From sequence record HQ630627.1: a stretch of DNA of 64,000 nucleotides. One strand, given 5' to 3'. Below, piece by piece: positions 50,321-58,420 of this stretch; positions within the stretch are counted from its first letter, which is position 1, and each line of letters opens with the position of its first letter. This DNA is from Pseudomonas phage PhiPA3. Below the pieces are notes generated by a model that made no database searches, was not told where the DNA came from, and saw only the letters and a list, made by a program, of their open reading frames with translations. Position numbers and translations under genes: made by a program.

Positions 50321-51967
50321 ATGAACGGCTTCATCATGGGCGCCACTCCCGGTAATGGAAAGCTCCGGATCACGAAAATGATTGCAGTGCAGACGGGCAC
50401 CTATCAGGAACAACACGTCCGTCCGTTCAATATTAACGCCAACAAGGAGGCGGTACAACGCCTGGATATCGCTACTCGTGGTGGTAACAACTTGGGCGTT
50501 CAAGCTGTACAAGAAGTTGCCTCGGACATCATCGTTCCGCAAGCGATGGTAGAAGGCGTAGTTGGCATCAAAGAAGGCTGGCGTTCTCGCCGATTCCGTT
50601 TCATGATGAATGTGAATGAAACCCATCCATTCATTCAGGGTACTGTTACTCAGCGTATCTTCTTTGGTTATTCCGACCACTGCGATGCGTCTGCTCAGTA
50701 CCTGCCTGACGACATGCGTGTCTACTTCAACTCCGAAACGATCGTGGTGTCTGCTATTCAAAACACTGTGAATGGCCCTCAACGGGTCGTTAACATCGTC
50801 GGTACCAACCAGATCGTGTCTCCAGTCGATATGATGGGTGGTAGTAACGGCATGTTTGCCCGAGCTACTTCACATCTGTGCCGTCCTGAAGACATGTTCA
50901 ACATTCAACAAACCCAGACTGTTGCACAGCGCCTTCAGGACTCGGGTATGTTCGATGGAGTGATTGCTCGTTCGATCGATCACCGTACTATGGTTGGTGA
51001 AGGCGGCGCATTCAAATACAGTACGCGTCGTGATACCTCTCCTGTTCGTTATCTTTCCAACAGCTTGAATGCCTACCAGCATTCGGTCAAGGAACTGGCA
51101 ATGGCGGAGCATGGTGATGACATGTTCGGTCAGCCATCGCAGGAAGTTCTGTTCGGTGAAGCTGCATCTCACTGCCGTAATGCCAGTATTCACAGCAACA
51201 CTTTCCTGGCAATGCTGAAAGATCATGCAGGTTACATGGAACGTGGTTACGTTACTTGGGGTGAGTTGCGTGCGATCTTCCCGGAGCTGAACCAATATGG
51301 CCAGGGTGGTGTTACCAACTTCGCAATGGACAACGGCCGTTCGATTCAGAAAGTTTCGATGGCTGAAGACTCCGCTGGTTGGGCAGGTGCGGACTATACC
51401 TCCATTGGGGCAAGCCTGCTTGCACAAGCGATTCCATCGATCATGATGGACACCTATCTGCGCCGCATCAGCTTTGCTGTTACCAACGGCATGGGTCCGA
51501 ACAACTACGCTGTCGAAATTCATCCAACTGGTACCAAATCCATCATCGATGACCTGGACACAGCCACCATTACCAAACACATCATGGAATTCGAACGTCG
51601 TTTGGGTACTGACATTCTGAATAACATCAGTCGCGGTAACCAGATTCCGTTTAAGATTTCCATGGCCTCCGATCTGGCTGGTGATTCCGTAATCGATATC
51701 AGTGTTGGCGGTGAACCGGTTGCTCGATTCGTAGCACCGACTTTCTCCGACAGCCTGTTCTCGCCGGTAATCACTCGTAATGATCAACTACCGACTAACA
51801 TGTCTGGTGACCTGACTTGGTTGGTCCAACAAGTCATCCCGAATCAAATGCAAAATCAAGCAATCAACATGGTTGGCTATAACCACCCAGTTGCACCTGC
51901 CGCTACCATGTCTGCCAATACCAATCAAGGAGTAATGAATAATGTCGCTGACCTTGGACTGCTATAA
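50321..51967 (+). CDS. hypothetical protein (possibly structural)
   Basis: 548-aa ORF, RBS AAGAGGTAGCTTACAATG, biased codon usage. Confidence 0.55.
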   Translation: MNGFIMGATPGNGKLRITKMIAVQTGTYQEQHVRPFNINANKEAVQRLDIATRGGNNLGVQAVQEVASDIIVPQAMVEGVVGIKEGWRSRRFRFMMNVNETHPFIQGTVTQRIFFGYSDHCDASAQYLPDDMRVYFNSETIVVSAIQNTVNGPQRVVNIVGTNQIVSPVDMMGGSNGMFARATSHLCRPEDMFNIQQTQTVAQRLQDSGMFDGVIARSIDHRTMVGEGGAFKYSTRRDTSPVRYLSNSLNAYQHSVKELAMAEHGDDMFGQPSQEVLFGEAASHCRNASIHSNTFLAMLKDHAGYMERGYVTWGELRAIFPELNQYGQGGVTNFAMDNGRSIQKVSMAEDSAGWAGADYTSIGASLLAQAIPSIMMDTYLRRISFAVTNGMGPNNYAVEIHPTGTKSIIDDLDTATITKHIMEFERRLGTDILNNISRGNQIPFKISMASDLAGDSVIDISVGGEPVARFVAPTFSDSLFSPVITRNDQLPTNMSGDLTWLVQQVIPNQMQNQAINMVGYNHPVAPAATMSANTNQGVMNNVADLGLL

Positions 51968-53267
51968 GGAAGTCCTGACCTCGCTTTCGTGTGTCTTCGA
52001 TGACGATGGTCTGATCTCCGTAGAAGCCCCAACCGGCTCTGCCAAGCCTGTTAAAGTCGAGGGGCGACGTCTGGTGCTCCCGACTAAAGAATGGCTGCGT
52101 AAAGGCTTCGGTGAAGACTACCAACCGTTCCACCCGCTGTGTGAGTCTCTGTCCCGTCGTGGTACCTCTCCGGTTATGCAGTTTATTCAGCGTTCCGTGA
52201 AGGCCAACCTGTCACACATCGTGGTATTCATGGCCACTAACCTGCTGCGAATTGCAGTAGATCAATCCACTCACAAGGATCTCCCGCCAGATACAACCGA
52301 CTTCCTCAAGAAGTTGGCTGACGCTGACAAGTCCTGCCTGACAGCTTTCGAGAAACTGATCGGCTCTGCCGTTAAGAAGAATCGTCTGATGACAGTCTAT
52401 CTGAAGAACGGCGGTACTTTTGACGGTAAGAAAGTGGACCGTATGGCAATCGTACGTTTCCCGATCCTCGAAGATCTGGCTAGCGAAAGCAAAGAAGTTC
52501 TGGGTATCGCATTGACCAAGAAACAACGCAAGGTAATTACTGCCCTGCTGCGCCTGGTCGTGCCTTTCGGCGACAATCCGGAAGAATACGCTTACGGTAC
52601 TCGTAGCCGTGTTGCTCCTTACTTCGAATCGATCCTGCATGCGTATCACAAGATCGCCACTGTACTGAACCAACTGATTCACCATTACGCGGTTCCGCTA
52701 CATATGCCCATCAAACCCATCGAGTTGTACGATCTTAAGATGCTGGAAAGCTTCGGTAAGATCTACAACGAGATTCCGGTTTTGGCTGGCAACGAAGGTG
52801 GTCACTCCGACACCCCGGAAGAAGCAGCAGGTACCACCGAACAGGCGCGAGCAGCTACCCAACCAACCGCCACCCAAACTGTTCAACCATCGCGTACCCC
52901 GGCTGTTACTCAGCAACCTGTCGCTACCACTGTGGCCCAACCTGCACATGGTAAAACCGTGAGCATGTCGGACTTCATGGCTGCGCAGAATCCGGCACCG
53001 ATGATGGCAGTCAATACCATGGTCAACCCCATGACCATGGGTGGAATGAACTCGGGTATGATGGGTATGGGTCAACCGATGATGTCTCCCATGGCTCCGG
53101 CCATGATGCCCATGGGTCAACCTACCGGCGGCATGTACGCGCCAACCAACACCTTGCTCCCATGGCAAGCGCAGCAGCAACAGATGATGCAGGCTCAACA
53201 GCCAGCTAATCCATTTGCGGCAGCAATTGCCCCGATGACCACCGGTGGTGGACTGGGTCTCCTGTAA
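51942..53267 (+). CDS. hypothetical protein with Met/Pro/Gly-rich low-complexity C-terminal tail
   Basis: 441 aa; C-terminal roughly 110 aa is extremely Met-rich (e.g. MMGMGQPMMSPMAPAMMPMGQP). Confidence 0.5.
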   Translation: MSLTLDCYKEVLTSLSCVFDDDGLISVEAPTGSAKPVKVEGRRLVLPTKEWLRKGFGEDYQPFHPLCESLSRRGTSPVMQFIQRSVKANLSHIVVFMATNLLRIAVDQSTHKDLPPDTTDFLKKLADADKSCLTAFEKLIGSAVKKNRLMTVYLKNGGTFDGKKVDRMAIVRFPILEDLASESKEVLGIALTKKQRKVITALLRLVVPFGDNPEEYAYGTRSRVAPYFESILHAYHKIATVLNQLIHHYAVPLHMPIKPIELYDLKMLESFGKIYNEIPVLAGNEGGHSDTPEEAAGTTEQARAATQPTATQTVQPSRTPAVTQQPVATTVAQPAHGKTVSMSDFMAAQNPAPMMAVNTMVNPMTMGGMNSGMMGMGQPMMSPMAPAMMPMGQPTGGMYAPTNTLLPWQAQQQQMMQAQQPANPFAAAIAPMTTGGGLGLL

Positions 53268-53810: not shown

Positions 53811-55001
53811 ATGTACGAAGAACACAACCTCCGGCGTGCAGTACGAGAGATCCATGCAAAACTTCTCGGTCATGCTGCACTGGATCCGTATTATGGAACT
53901 ACCTCCGCTGCTCGTGGAGCTATGTTCTTGTCTCACATTGGTCAGGCGCCCGTTGTGGAAGGGAACGAGCCCCGCCGTGTGATGACCGGTATGGAAATGC
54001 GTTATGCCGAATACACGTTCGACGTTCGTCTACCTACGGACTGCACGATTCTGCACAAAGTCCGTAAGTACCCCACTGGGCAAGGGTATGGGGCAATCCA
54101 ACATAACCCTGTAACAACTCTGATCTACGAGAACTATTACGACGAATACAAGACCATCGGCGTACTGCATGTTCCTGAGTACATGAGTTTTCACCAGGAC
54201 TTTGGTTATGAGCTAGTCAAGAACAAAGAAGTATGGGAATCTCTGCAACCTGACCAGATGTTCGCCAAAGATACCGTTATCGCTCAGTCCTCGACTGTAA
54301 AGTCTAACGGATTGTACGGCATGGGTGTAAACGCCAACGTTGCGTTCATGTCTGTGCCTGGTACCATTGAGGACGGTTTTGTCGTCTCCGATGAGTTCTT
54401 GGAACGTATGTCCCCACGTACTTACACCACCGCAGTTTGTGGTGCGGGTAAGAAGGCATTCTTCCTGAACATGTATGGCGATGACAAGATCTACAAACCG
54501 TTCCCGGATATTGGAGAAAAGATTCGGGAAGATGGCGTGATCTTTGCGGTACGCGATTTGGATGATGACTTGGCTCCGGCCGAAATGACTCCGCGCGCCC
54601 TGCGTACGCTGGACCGTACTTTCGATCGCGCTGTTATTGGTGATCCGGGTGCGACTGTAAAAGACATCAAAGTATATTGGGACGAACGTCAGAATCCCAG
54701 TTTCACGCCAAGCGGTATGGATGGTCAACTGCGCAAGTATTACGACGCGTTGTGCACCTATTACCGGGAGATCATCAAGATCTACCGTGGGTTGCTGGCA
54801 CGGCGTAAAGACAAGCTGCGGATCAGCGAAGAGTTCAACCAGCTCCTCGTTGAAGCCATGATCTACCTACCGCAAGCTGAGGGCCAGCGTAAGCTGACTC
54901 GGATGTATCGTCTGGAACAACTGGATGAATGGCGTGTGGAACTCACCTACGAATCCATTAAAGTTCCTGGTGGTGCATATAAGCTCACAGATTTTCACGG
55001 T
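53811..55001 (+). CDS. RNA polymerase beta subunit C-terminal fragment, exon 1 (non-virion RNAP, phiKZ gp71/73-like)
   Basis: Block GVNANVAFMSVPGTIEDGFVVSDEFLERMSPRTYTT aligns with E. coli beta [34 protein letters not shown]; the ORF runs to TGA 55011, but the proposed splice donor follows T55001 (...KLTDFHG). Confidence 0.8.
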
Positions 55002-55445
55002 GGTTCGCTATGAATGTCAATAAACATTGATTAAAGTATACTTATTTGTCCGTGGTATGTTGAACAAGTTGCCGTAGGATAAATAAGTGAAGATTTTAAT
55101 GGATGGATATTCAAAGAAATGTAAGAGCCTGCTTAATCAGCGATGGTTAAGTAATCGTCATCTAATTGCGGGAAACCCCTGAGAGCCTTATCTACTAACT
55201 CAACCCAGCGATGGAGTTGAGGGCCAGTCTAATCCACTGGGTACAGTAAAAATGATAAGGATTGGGCAATCCGCAGCGAAGCTTCTCTTTGAGAAGAACG
55301 TTCAACGACTAACCCCTAACCAGGGTGTAGAACTTAAGCGAGTTCGAAATGGTGACCCTCTCACGCAGAGGAAGATATAGTCTGTTCCCATGTGAAAGCA
55401 TGGGCGGGTGTCATAGCACACCGGGATAGCGTAGCGAACTATCTG
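55002..55445 (+). ncRNA. group I self-splicing intron (ORF-less) interrupting the RNAP beta gene
   Basis: P4 motif AATTGCGGGAAA (55164-55175); P7 halves GACTAA (55307-55312) and ATATAGTC (55375-55382) as in the Tetrahymena intron; GAAA-tetraloop P9 hairpin (55387-55404) followed by two more hairpins (55407-55424, 55425-55443); candidate IGS GCCGT (55071-55075) complementary to the exon end ACGGT with G.U at the splice site; no ORF over 60 aa inside; exact boundaries inferred. Confidence 0.6.
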
Positions 55446-56447
55446 GACAAAAAGAAAGGAGTAGTCTGTGAGGTGAGACCGAAAGCTGATATGCCAGTGG
55501 ACGAATTTGGTAACGTCGTAGACGCTATCATCTTCGGTGGTTCCACCATGCGTCGTTCTAACTATGGTCGGATCTACGAACACGGTTTCGGAGCAGCATC
55601 CCGAGACCTGGCGCAACGTCTACGTGTTGAAGCTGGCCTTCCCCGTCATGGCGTAGTACCGGAGCAAGATCTGAATCGGGTTTGCAGCAATCGAGAGTGG
55701 GTTACTTACGCTTTCGCTGAACTGCAAGAGTTCTATTACATCATCGCGCCAACCATGCACGAGATATTGAGAGAACACCCAAGTCCAGCTGAGTACGTAA
55801 AAACCGTTCTTCGTGATGGTTTCTCGTACATCTACAGCCCGGTAGACGATCCGGTAGACCTGATGAGTTCACTGAACTGCATCATGAACAGTCGTTTCTG
55901 CCCGAACCATACGCGAGTTACCTATCGCGGTCAAGATGGGAAGATGGTCACCACCAAGGACAAAGTTCTGGTTGGTCCGCTGTACATGATGTTGCTGGAG
56001 AAGATCGGTGAAGACTGGTCTGCCGTAGCGTCGGTAAAAGTTCAGCAATTCGGCCTGCCGTCTAAACTGAACAACTCTGACCGTTCCAGCACTCCGGGTC
56101 GGGAATCCGCCATCCGTTCGTTCGGTGAATCGGAAACTCGTTCGTATAACTGCACTGTTGGCCCAGAAGCTACGGTGGAGCTGTTGGACCAGACTAACAA
56201 CCCGAGAGCGCACCTTGCTGTGATCAACTCTATTCTGACTGCTGACAAGCCCAGTAACATTGAGCGTGCAGTGGACAGGACCAAGGTACCGTTCGGTAGT
56301 AGTCGACCGGTGGATCTGCTGGAGCACCTGCTGGAATGTCGCGGTCTTAAGTTTGAATACGCAACCACTGACGGCGTACAGCCTGTTCACACAGCTGTAC
56401 CAATCCGTGCCCAACAAAAGGTTAAGAGTGAGGCAATCGAGGAGTGA
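55446..56447 (+). CDS. RNA polymerase beta subunit C-terminal fragment, exon 2
   Basis: DKKKGVVCEVRPKADMPVDEFGNVVDAIIFGG aligns with E. coli beta [33 protein letters not shown]; later VGPLYMMLLEKIG...FGESETRSY aligns with VGYMYMLKLNHL...FGEMEVWALEAYG; the proposed junction ...KLTDFHG|DKKKGVV restores the near-universal beta block [11 protein letters not shown]. Confidence 0.75.
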   Translation, partial: DKKKGVVCEVRPKADMPVDEFGNVVDAIIFGGSTMRRSNYGRIYEHGFGAASRDLAQRLRVEAGLPRHGVVPEQDLNRVCSNREWVTYAFAELQEFYYIIAPTMHEILREHPSPAEYVKTVLRDGFSYIYSPVDDPVDLMSSLNCIMNSRFCPNHTRVTYRGQDGKMVTTKDKVLVGPLYMMLLEKIGEDWSAVASVKVQQFGLPSKLNNSDRSSTPGRESAIRSFGESETRSYNCTVGPEATVELLDQTNNPRAHLAVINSILTADKPSNIERAVDRTKVPFGSSRPVDLLEHLLECRGLKFEYATTDGVQPVHTAVPIRAQQKVKSEAIEE

Positions 56448-56449
56448 AG

Positions 56450-58420
56450 ATGAACCAGTACAATGCTCGTGATCTCCTCAACATGTCGTATGATGACTTG
56501 TTCGCCATTCCGAATGAGTGGCACAAGATCATCTTCGACGATGGAGAGATTCTCACCAAAGATCGCGCCACTAAACTGTCGATTCTGCTTTGGCATCCGC
56601 TGAAGCAGTTTCCGAATGCTACGCTGTCCGTGAAGTACCACCTGGGAGACACTCGGGTTACCTCGAAGTCCCTAGTGAAACTCCTGAACAGCGTGATCTG
56701 GGGAATTCATGCGTGGAGTAATGAGCAGGTCGATCCGGAGGTTCTGGCCCGTCTCGCAATCGAAGCGAAGAACGTTCTGTATAACGAAGCTACTTCCCGC
56801 CTTGGTGCCTACGTAGCAACGCTGTCCATGTTCGAAATCGCGGAGGTTTACAATCATCCAAAAGTCCGTGAGGCCAACCAAAACATTGAGCCTACCACCC
56901 ACGGCATCGAAACTATTGCTTACGGCAAAATAAAGGAAGCTTTCAACGACCCAACACAGTTCCGCGGTAACAGCATCATCGAGGGTCTGCGCTCCGGGAC
57001 GCAAAAGATGGAACAGTTGCTCCAAGCTTTCGGTCCTCGTGGATTCCCGACCGACATCAACTCCGATATCTTCGCTGAACCTTGTCTGACTGGGTACATT
57101 GATGGTATCTGGGGTCTGTATGAGAACATGATCGAATCGCGTTCTGGTACCAAGGCTCTGTTGTATAACAAAGAGTTGTTGCGGGTAACCGAGTACTTCA
57201 ACCGGAAGTCTCAGCTGATCGCACAATATGTGCAGCGTCTCCATAAGGGTGACTGTGGTGCAGGGTACATTGAGTTCCCGGTCATCAAAGCTTACCTGAA
57301 ATCGCTACGCGGTAAGTTCTACCTGAACGAGGAAACAGGCAAGCGAGAGATCCTGCAAGGAAACGAGACTCATCTGATCGGTAAGAAGATCAAGATGCGT
57401 TCCGTGCTGGGTTGCGTACATCCTGATCCGCAAGGTATTTGTGCAACGTGTTACGGTACGCTAGCCGATAACATTCCGAGAGGCACGAACATCGGCCAAG
57501 TGTCTGCTGTATCCATGGGTGACAAAATCACCTCATCGGTACTGTCGACTAAACACACCGATGCGACTTCCGCTGTAGAGCAATACAAAATCACTGGCGT
57601 TGAAGCTAAGTACCTAAGAGAAGGTCAGGCGCCTGAAACGTTGTACCTGAAGAAGGAGCTTGCTAATAAGGGCTATCGCTTGATGATCGGCCGCAACGAA
57701 GCGCAGAACTTGGCTGACGTGCTGATGATCGATAACTTGAGTGCATATCCACCCACATCTGCATCCGAACTGACTCGTATCGGTTTGGTTCGCACGGTGG
57801 ATGGGATTGATGAGGGGGATGTCCTGACGGTATCGTTGTATAACCGTAAGGCTAGCCTGTCAATCGAATTGCTGCAACATGTGAAGCGTGTTCGCTGGGA
57901 ACTGGACAACCGGGATAACATCGTCATCGACCTGAATGGTTTCGATTTCTCCCTGCCATTCCTGACCCTACCGTACAAGCACGTTAACATGTACGAAGTG
58001 ATGAAGCGGATTCAAAGCTTCTTGCACTCCGGTAGCGACACCGAAGGTTCTAAACTGAGTTCTGATAAGGTAGGATTTACTAGCAAGACTTATCTTAAGA
58101 ACTACAATGACCCCATCGATGCCGTTGCAGCATTTGCTTCTCTGGTCAACGAGAAGATTCAATTGCCAATGCCGCACTGTGAAGTACTGGTTTATGCTAT
58201 GATGGTTCGGTCCACGCAACAGCGTGACTACCGTCTGCCTAAACCGGGTATTTCGGGTCAGTTTGAGAAGTATAACAAGCTGATGCAATCCCGCTCGCTC
58301 GCCGGCGCAATGGCGTTTGAGAAGCAGCATGAGCCGTTGAATAACCCCGGCAGCTTCCTCTATACGCTGAGGAATGACCACCCGTACGACCTTGCGGTCA
58401 AGGGAGGTAAGCTGTACTAA
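56450..58420 (+). CDS. RNA polymerase beta' subunit C-terminal fragment (phiKZ gp74-like)
   Basis: GLRSGTQKMEQLLQAFGPRGF and GYIDGIWGLYENMIESRSGTKA align with the E. coli beta' region [20 protein letters not shown] ... [21 protein letters not shown] (bridge-helix region); start ATG 56450 directly follows the beta stop at 56447. Confidence 0.8.
   Translation: MNQYNARDLLNMSYDDLFAIPNEWHKIIFDDGEILTKDRATKLSILLWHPLKQFPNATLSVKYHLGDTRVTSKSLVKLLNSVIWGIHAWSNEQVDPEVLARLAIEAKNVLYNEATSRLGAYVATLSMFEIAEVYNHPKVREANQNIEPTTHGIETIAYGKIKEAFNDPTQFRGNSIIEGLRSGTQKMEQLLQAFGPRGFPTDINSDIFAEPCLTGYIDGIWGLYENMIESRSGTKALLYNKELLRVTEYFNRKSQLIAQYVQRLHKGDCGAGYIEFPVIKAYLKSLRGKFYLNEETGKREILQGNETHLIGKKIKMRSVLGCVHPDPQGICATCYGTLADNIPRGTNIGQVSAVSMGDKITSSVLSTKHTDATSAVEQYKITGVEAKYLREGQAPETLYLKKELANKGYRLMIGRNEAQNLADVLMIDNLSAYPPTSASELTRIGLVRTVDGIDEGDVLTVSLYNRKASLSIELLQHVKRVRWELDNRDNIVIDLNGFDFSLPFLTLPYKHVNMYEVMKRIQSFLHSGSDTEGSKLSSDKVGFTSKTYLKNYNDPIDAVAAFASLVNEKIQLPMPHCEVLVYAMMVRSTQQRDYRLPKPGISGQFEKYNKLMQSRSLAGAMAFEKQHEPLNNPGSFLYTLRNDHPYDLAVKGGKLY

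Follow-up and report, generated by a model that had tools for sequence, protein, structure and literature searches.

Group I introns are an established feature of jumbo-phage RNA polymerase genes, and so is the role of their endonucleases in competition between phages (PMC11620839, PMC12908238). In the virion RNA polymerase genes they interrupt PhiPA3 gp210 and 201phi2-1 gp273/274 at conserved motifs, and the intron in PhiPA3 gp210 encodes an active nicking HNH enzyme which acts in phage competition (PMC11620839). For phiKZ, an intron in the gp71-gp72-gp73 region was predicted by Mesyanzhinov et al. in 2002, as cited in PMC10914365. Here we describe an intron in a stretch of 64,000 nt from the Pseudomonas phage PhiPA3 (HQ630627.1), which we call the window and to which all positions refer. 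We conclude that positions 55005..55454 of the plus strand are, with high probability, a self-splicing group I intron of 450 nt without an endonuclease open reading frame (ORF), located in a non-virion RNA polymerase gene of this phiKZ-like jumbo phage, the one which encodes the C-terminal half of the beta subunit. The evidence comes from an Rfam match, the junctions in homologous genes, a conserved 3' tail and the fold of the P1 helix.

The phiKZ intron has the same host gene as the window intron, the same exact insertion point (GGT|AAR, between HGG and K) and likewise a match to the Rfam family RF00028. However, it is 1218 nt long and carries in the loop of P1 an HNH/NUMOD ORF of 320 amino acids (aa). 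The existence of an HNH-bearing intron at the matching place in phiKZ had been put forward in an earlier, sequence-only reading of the window, and it agrees with our comparison to the intron-less phage KEN49 and with the type of the ORF. The introns of PhiPA3 gp210 and 201phi2-1 differ from the window intron in the polymerase gene (virion beta or beta') and in the site, while positions 266-382 of the window intron and the core of that in 201phi2-1 have 74% identity. A similar identity (approximately 74% over the core, P4-P7) was found to introns of SPO1-like Bacillus phages. With the classical phage introns of the IA type (T4 td/nrdB/sunY, Twort, and the SPO1/Bastille group), the window intron shares the self-splicing group I architecture, the P7.1 and P7.2 hairpins and the insertion at the catalytic motif of an essential gene, but the hosts of those introns are genes for DNA polymerase, thymidylate synthase and ribonucleotide reductase.

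Identification and secondary structure of the intron

RF00028 (Intron_gpI) matched positions 55111-55404 of the plus strand with 79.2 bits (gathering threshold 50, E = 1.8e-18), and the model was covered fully, from position 1 to 253 of 253. This was the sole Rfam match in the 64-kb window, both at the gathering threshold and at E <= 0.1; the sensitive scan revealed no further introns or other RNAs in the window, and no tRNAs were detected there. The consensus junctions J3/4 (AAUUGCGGGAAA), J6/7 (GUUCAAcGACUA) and J8/7 (GAAGAUAUAGUC) align to the model with high posterior probability. The motifs listed in the sequence-only reading are in place at the positions given there, namely AATTGCGGGAAA at 55164-55175, GACTAA at 55307-55312, ATATAGTC at 55375-55382, a GAAA-capped hairpin at 55387-55404, GCCGT at 55071-55075 and a TGA at 55011-55013. 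Since these motifs are present and the RF00028 match is unique in 64 kb, the feature is real, far beyond chance. The claim that it is a group I intron was thus confirmed by the covariance model, and also by the covariation described below.

The catalytic core spans positions 55157..55382 of the plus strand according to the Rfam alignment and the covariation counts. For the latter, ten introns inserted at this site were aligned with MAFFT and scored against a written-out model from P2 to P9.2, including P5a, P5b and P5c, P6a, P7.1, P7.2 and the P3/P7 pseudoknot. In the full model 83.6% of the cells were paired, in comparison to 38-44% when the partners were slid, and 48 of the 88 pairs had changed on both sides, while only 7-17 had done so with slid partners. 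The covariation score was 0.312 (0.045-0.091 with slid partners), and none of 500 shuffles reached the observed values. RNAalifold predicted 39 pairs for the same ten introns, 23 of them with compensatory changes, and the minimum free energy (MFE) structure of the single 450-nt intron contains the same helices (z = -5.3). For phiKZ- and L018-type introns (homologous loci are designated by L numbers here) MAFFT performed poorly at P2 and P9.1, and the low pairing of helices 1, 4, 17 and 18 reflects misalignment or architecture and does not disprove them.

All helices are on the plus strand. P3, P6, P7 and P8 are 98-100% paired in the ten-intron alignment: P3 (55157-62/55351-56) is paired in 98% and has compensatory changes in five of its six pairs, P8 (55357-61/55367-71) is paired in 100% with compensatory changes in four of five, and P7 (55307-11/55378-82), which is pseudoknotted with P3, is paired in 100%, with a U-A pair replaced by C-G in L018 and L023. 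The remaining core helices are P4 (55167-72/55270-75), P5 (55176-78/55264-66), P6 (55276-78/55299-301) and P6a (55282-87/55291-96). Between P7 and the 3' strand of P3 there are two hairpins, P7.1 (55314-17/55322-25; 77% paired in the alignment) and P7.2 (55330-34/55341-45; covarying), which suggest that the intron is IA-like; the phage IA2 group has been noted to be heterogeneous (PMC11878797).

Peripheral elements surround this core. P5 is extended by a three-way junction (55186..55260) consisting of P5a (55186-92/55254-60), P5b (55199-207/55212-221, with a GCGA loop) and P5c (55224-28/55236-40), and compensatory changes in it were found in L012, L014 and L015. The P2 hairpin CUUAAUC/GGUUAAG (55132..55151) was found by folding; its covariation is partial, with a poor alignment in this region. 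The 3' part (55387..55443) contains P9 (55387-93/55398-404, with a GAAA loop), P9.1 (55407-55411/55418-55422) and P9.2 (55425-55429/55439-55443). P9.1 and P9.2 correspond to the two further 3' hairpins mentioned in the sequence-only reading, the helix coordinates of which were also correct.

The interrupted gene

The intron separates two ORFs which are located on the plus strand in one frame (53811-55013, 400 aa, and 55392-56447, 351 aa) and together correspond to a non-virion RNA polymerase beta subunit of the phiKZ gp71-73 type, each ORF representing one half. That the beta gene is split here had been recognized before, and it is supported by Pfam, by tblastn and by an alignment to a solved structure. 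Exon 1 (53811..55004, plus strand), the homolog of phiKZ gp71, is 70-77% identical in tblastn to the genes of phiKZ and PA1C, contains the TDFHGG peptide present in all homologs and ends with CAC GGT GGT (HGG). Exon 2 (55455..56447, plus strand), the homolog of gp73, starts with AAA GGA GTA (KGV), matches the Pfam family RNA_pol_Rpb2_6 and is aligned to chain C of PDB 7OGP, the solved phiKZ non-virion polymerase gp71-73. The joined product aligned to this chain with E = 1.6e-140; with its 728 aa it is colinear with 7OGP_C and with the intron-less genes of PA1C and KEN49.

In tblastn the joined exons matched 311 phage genomes. The best relatives, with approximately 77% identity in a single piece, are the intron-less group of PA1C, PS119XW and phiLBG22, to which HPP-Temi (a Pawinskivirus by classification) also belongs; genomes of the phiKZ group rank next with approximately 70% identity. 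The gene order is shared with the PA1C- and phiKZ-group genomes: a gp70-like ORF, a small antisense ORF, the split beta gene and a gp74-like beta' gene. A megablast search against phages for a near-identical relative, which would allow an intron-plus/minus comparison, returned nothing closer than 77-82% identity over short stretches. A look-up of the exact protein of the neighbouring gene gave no record, and no near-identical genome turned up in the phage, IMG/VR or metagenome collections.

The first lysine of exon 2 is the conserved active-centre lysine of the double-psi beta-barrel (DPBB), corresponding to K394 of phiKZ, which we take to be the equivalent of K1073 of the E. coli beta subunit (in HGNKGV) by standard numbering. 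In the phiKZ polymerase the conserved DPBB active-centre lysines are K386 and K394 (PMC8287921). The uninterrupted motif is TDFHGGKGV(V/I)CK in the intron-less PA1C and KEN49, TD(F/I)(H/F)GGK(G/S)V in seven intron-less IMG/VR homologs, all without indel, and TDFHGG-K394-GVICK in 7OGP_C. Comparison of the intron-less KEN49 with the near-identical exons of SL2 and phiKZ places the intron of the latter exactly at ...CAT GGT GGT|AATTAATA...CATAACG|AAG GGC..., and RF00028 matches the phiKZ and SL2 loci but not the intron-less ones.

In the window, the boundary sequence is ...CAC GGT GGT|TCGCTATG...GGACAAAAAG|AAA GGA GTA.... Splicing after U55004 and G55454 yields TDFHGG|KGVVCEVRPKADMP (...LTDFHGG|KGVVCEV...) without indel, in a product of 728 aa. 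The predicted ligated message would be ...CAC GGU GGU|AAA GGA GUA..., with the junction ...CACGGUGGU|AAAGGAGUA... (in a longer context ...GATTTTCACGGTGGT|AAAGGAGTAGTCTGT...), and an intron-less form of the gene would read ...CACGGTGGTAAAGGAGTA.... The predicted junction HGG|KGVV is thus located immediately before the conserved DPBB lysine, and the initial 21 codons of the ORF at 55392, not 18 as assumed earlier, are intronic.

Predicted splice sites and internal guide sequence

The 3' splice site was assigned by using the P9.1 sequence GGCGGGTGTCnnAGCACACCGGG as a probe. It was found at 30 sites on approximately 17 IMG/VR contigs, corresponding to 25 distinct copies including that of the window. 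In each of the 25 copies a perfectly paired P9.2 stem of 5 bp comes after the P9.1 motif, and since the stem occurs in 13 different sequences, this represents covariation. An 11-nt tail YGGACAnnnnG follows P9.2, again in 25 of 25 copies (the terminal G is present in 23), and downstream of it the sequences diverge into at least ten exon contexts, four of which start with TTTGA(Y)GG..., the FDGD motif of beta'. The corresponding sequence in the window is UGGACAAAAAG (55444..55454, plus strand). Because it matches the conserved tail, the omega-G of the intron is G55454, while G55445 falls within a conserved intron element.

We infer that the exact 5' splice site is after U55004. In the unconstrained fold of positions 54996-55152 (z = -5.5), the sequence GGUUC (55002..55006, plus strand), which is the 5' strand of P1 with the boundary at GGU|UC, is paired with GAGCC (55125..55129, plus strand), and this helix precedes a long rod (55011-55113) and P2 (55132-51). 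The same pairing is found in the optimal duplex. GAGCC, the internal guide sequence, immediately precedes the conserved UG-CUU with which P2 starts, at the position homologous to that in SL2 and L012. The pair U55004-G55127 is the sole G-U wobble in P1 and marks the splice site. The equivalents of the guide 5' of P2 are AAUUGCC in SL2, GCCACC in L012 (a perfect 6 bp to GGUGGU) and GCCG in L015 and L018, and in the optimal duplexes of these four introns the splice-site U is opposite the same guide G. In the optimal duplexes, covariation with the guide is also seen for the first two intron bases, +1 and +2 (UC/GA in the window, AA/UU in SL2); in L014, inspection by eye gives GG/CC at these positions, while the optimal duplex took a different register. 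The P1 extension (55011..55113, plus strand) is an imperfect rod seen in both the MFE and the centroid structure, with stems at 55011-18/55106-13, 55030-37/55093-100 and 55040-51/55077-88, and it sits where relatives hold a homing-endonuclease ORF. In the MFE structure of the whole intron, its first bases (55005-12, UCGCUAUG) are paired with 55426-31 (AUAGCG of P9.2), which was not seen in SL2; we set this pairing aside as a non-conserved alternative, since it would form at the expense of P9.2, and P9.2 is paired in every one of the 25 copies.

An intron matching RF00028 is present in 11 of the 20 homologous IMG/VR loci, either at this codon or 3 nt before it. Site A (GGT GGT|...|AAR) is used in the window, phiKZ, SL2 (L003), PA7, L002, L012-14, L021, L030 and L054, and site B, 3 nt upstream (CAC GGT|...|GGA AAR), in L015, L018-20, L023-24 and L046. 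The window exon also contains a tandem GGU GGU, either copy of which can pair with the guide GCC, and relatives with the same 3' tail splice 3 nt upstream, although their exon 2 starts with GGA. We therefore considered that the window intron could use the upstream GGU, with splicing after U55001 and omega-G55454, which would result in TDFHG|KGVV with one glycine fewer. This is very unlikely, since exon 2 of the window starts with AAA and not with GGA AAA, so that a conserved glycine would be deleted and only site A restores the motif. Further, P1 would have 3 bp rather than 5 bp, and the first intron base (G55002) would face A55126.

Still less likely are the splice sites of the sequence-only reading, which located the intron at 55002-55445; an intron is indeed there, but both boundaries had to be moved, by 3 and 9 bases. 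According to that model, splicing would occur after U55001 with G55445 as omega-G and GCCGU (55071-55075) as guide, resulting in the junction CACGGT|GACAAAAAG and the product ...TDFHG|DKKKGVV.... On paper ACGGU|GGUU pairs with AGUUGCCGU in 9 bp including four wobbles, the rules for U and G at the two boundaries are satisfied, and the frame is kept. However, the product has two additional residues and has lost a glycine within the invariant HGxKGV, which is the case in no homolog: the intron-less homologs and 7OGP_C all have HGGKGV without extra residues. The sequence GGACAAAAAG, which that model assigns to exon 2, belongs to the tail of the intron in all 25 copies of the subfamily, which occur in at least ten exon contexts. 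The guide of that model is situated 55 nt from P2, in the loop which caps a 12-bp stem, whereas the guide of all relatives abuts P2, and forcing the ACGGU/GCCGU pairing costs approximately 21 kcal/mol (-28.5 kcal/mol, as compared to -49.4 kcal/mol for both the unconstrained fold and the corrected P1). Thus, the junctions of the homologs and the fold of P1 favour U55004 as the last base of exon 1.

Probable loss of the endonuclease gene

The intron ORFs of phiKZ, L012, L014 and L019 start in the P1 loop, 21-92 nt past the 5' splice site, and those of phiKZ, L014 and L019 are of the HNH/NUMOD type. In line with the sequence-only reading, no endonuclease ORF was detected in the window intron: the longest plus-strand ORF within it has 42 aa, runs across the core helices and has no Pfam match, and an antisense ORF of 104 aa has no Pfam match either. 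Tblastn of the intron ORFs of the four relatives against the whole window gave no match. When a hidden or decayed endonuclease gene was sought in the intron and the whole window, only a vestige of 12 codons was found.

The vestige (55089..55124, plus strand) reads EDFNGWIFKEM-stop. It matches the C-terminal sequences ENLDGWIF of phiKZ gp72 and KNLDGWIF of the L014 ORF, with 19 of 24 nt identical to phiKZ, and is probably the 3' end of a lost I-HmuI-like HNH ORF of the gp72 type. It may have been retained because it is also the 3' strand of the P1 extension. Thus, judging from these remains, the ancestor of the intron was probably mobile and contained an ORF, which disappeared some time after this codon had been invaded. 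Lacking a homing endonuclease, the present intron is unable to mobilise itself.

Proposed splicing of the intron

According to the proposed mechanism, the exon-end GGU and the intron UC (55002-55006) in the folded pre-mRNA would pair with the guide GAGCC (55125-55129), and the wobble pair U55004-G55127 would thereby be presented. The attack after U55004 would come from an exogenous guanosine bound in P7; then the omega-G (G55454) would take this site, and the freed 3'-OH of exon 1 would attack after G55454, leading to ligation of the exons. In this way the essential polymerase subunit would be restored with an intact TDFHGG|KGVV.

Several observations weigh against our interpretation. The catalytic activity of the window intron and its splicing are what we infer from the features described above, and long-read ONT-cappable-seq of phiKZ gave no spliced reads across gp72 or the predicted introns (PMC10914365), against which it can be set that the phiKZ polymerase studied structurally is a fused gp71-73 chain (PMC8287921). 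P1 is short, with 3 exon and 2 intron base pairs, and the upstream GGU (site B, as in L015 and L018-L024) would be an alternative partner for its GCC, so that U55001 may be used occasionally. We found no convincing P10, and when a conserved partner of the tail sequence GGACA (a P9.0- or P10-like helix) was sought in seven introns, none was conserved. Finally, the match of the vestige is limited to approximately 8 aa (24 nt), and RNA pairing also constrains this stretch.

The least probable explanation is that no splicing takes place and that the gene is truly split, or the intron a decayed relic, with polypeptides of 400 aa and 351 aa assembling into the polymerase: jumbo-phage RNA polymerase subunits are indeed already divided among several polypeptides, a GTG at 55392 opens the second ORF and, as mentioned, phiKZ introns lacked spliced reads in one study, but the break would fall within the DPBB active-centre motif, between HGG and K, the core helices and consensus junctions are all intact and covary with those of relatives, the start at 55392 lies within the P9 hairpin and is followed by the 21 codons that have no counterpart in any homolog, and the phiKZ chain whose structure was studied is fused.

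Related introns

Interruption of this codon by an intron is common among jumbo phages, and the window is another case, at the same codon as in phiKZ but with a ribozyme of another subfamily. SL2, PA7, KTN4 and many Phikzvirus genomes contain an ORF-less intron of 307 nt in the same gene and at the same site (RF00028 score 84.2 bits). It has retained the last codons of a lost gp72-type ORF, as the window intron probably has. However, the SL2-type intron derives from the phiKZ intron by simple deletion and has a short P1 loop and no P5 extension, while that of the window is longer by 143 nt and a member of another structural subfamily. SL2-type loci are usually annotated as two separate coding sequences (CDSs).

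With the phiKZ/SL2 introns, the window intron has in common only the homologous P6-P9.2 region and the 3' tail; the phiKZ guide GCC is also directly 5' of P2. They lack the P5abc-like extension (approximately 65 nt in the window) and have another P9.1 and another 5' region. No phiKZ-group intron was among the best 40 of 64 matching records when the window intron was compared to phage genomes by blastn, and the only Pseudomonas records among these 40 were HPP-Temi and two copies of 201phi2-1. Hence the window intron shares the insertion site of the phiKZ intron but not the full-length architecture and sequence of the gp72 type, and it is closer to L012.

Its closest ribozyme relatives are the uncharacterised introns of an IMG/VR subfamily with the P9.1 type 'GGCGGGUGUC..AGCACACCGGG' (L012/L013, L014, L015, L021, L030 and L054). 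They contain P5abc, P9.1, P9.2 and the tail as in the window, and several are inserted at the same codon of the same gene. The intron of L012 is 86% identical to that of the window over P7'-P9-P9.1 and 73% over P4-P5abc-P6. The beta proteins of these phages are only approximately 28-36% identical to that of the window, which suggests horizontal spread of the intron subfamily. Most of its members carry ORFs (265 aa in L012, 311 aa in L014; in L030 the exon matches are approximately 1.9 kb apart), and the P1 rod of the window was found in none of them. An exact search of metagenomes with a 32-mer of this rod gave 0 matches, and a degenerate pattern combining tail and exon gave six, of which one, a distant one, was relevant.

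The two registers, sites A and B, look like the result of intron sliding by one repeat unit or of two homing specificities. At the insertion site itself, the intron-less allele of KEN49 (L004) and the intron-bearing one of SL2 (L003) and phiKZ show synonymous differences (GGA GGG AAG GGA GTT versus GGT GGT AAG GGC GTC), as would be expected from co-conversion tracts or from escape from endonuclease recognition.

Introns with the P9.1 motif GGCGGGTGTCnnAGCACACCGGG and the tail (L027-L054; e.g. IMGVR_UViG_3300046096_000189 and 3300014205_000175) are present in several copies per jumbo-phage contig, and in L035, L036, L037 and L041 the intron immediately precedes the sequence for the catalytic motif FDGD in a beta'-like gene. 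HPP-Temi (L025, PP968062.1 235510-235658) has no polymerase-beta intron; in this phage an HNH-bearing intron splits the DNA polymerase gene, which is annotated as separate CDSs, and the core of this intron is approximately 75% similar to that of the window over P4-P7.

Neighbouring genes

The gp70-like ORF upstream of the beta gene (51942-53267) has a low-complexity C-terminal tail of approximately 110 aa which is enriched in Q, M, P and G (...MMGMGQPMMSPMAPAMMPMGQ...QQQQMMQAQQ...). A GTG at 56444, overlapping the stop codon with which exon 2 ends (56445-56447), opens the gp74-like beta' gene; an ATG at 56450 is also a candidate start.

Significance

The assignment of the intron has a practical consequence, since gene callers report this essential subunit as two unrelated ORFs, as do many GenBank records of phiKZ-like phages, while the corrected coordinates give a product of 728 aa. 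It is tempting to speculate further that the phiKZ-type and the P5abc-bearing lineages invaded the GGT|AAA codon independently, that the ORF-less copy of the window was kept as immunity to gp72-like HNH nucleases of co-infecting jumbo phages, and that the P1 rod of approximately 100 nt is functional, for example in folding or in translation-coupled control of splicing. We regard this combined scenario as possible though rather doubtful; if it is true, the occupied site would be a passive defence in interference competition of the kind described for PhiPA3 gp210.

The intron adds a case to the established pattern of group I introns at catalytic motifs of jumbo-phage RNA polymerase genes, with loss of the endonuclease after fixation, a pattern which will not surprise specialists. 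More modest points can be added to it: a single codon is a hotspot for at least two intron architectures, it is used in two registers 3 nt apart, and the intron subfamily has spread across host genes with approximately 30% identity.

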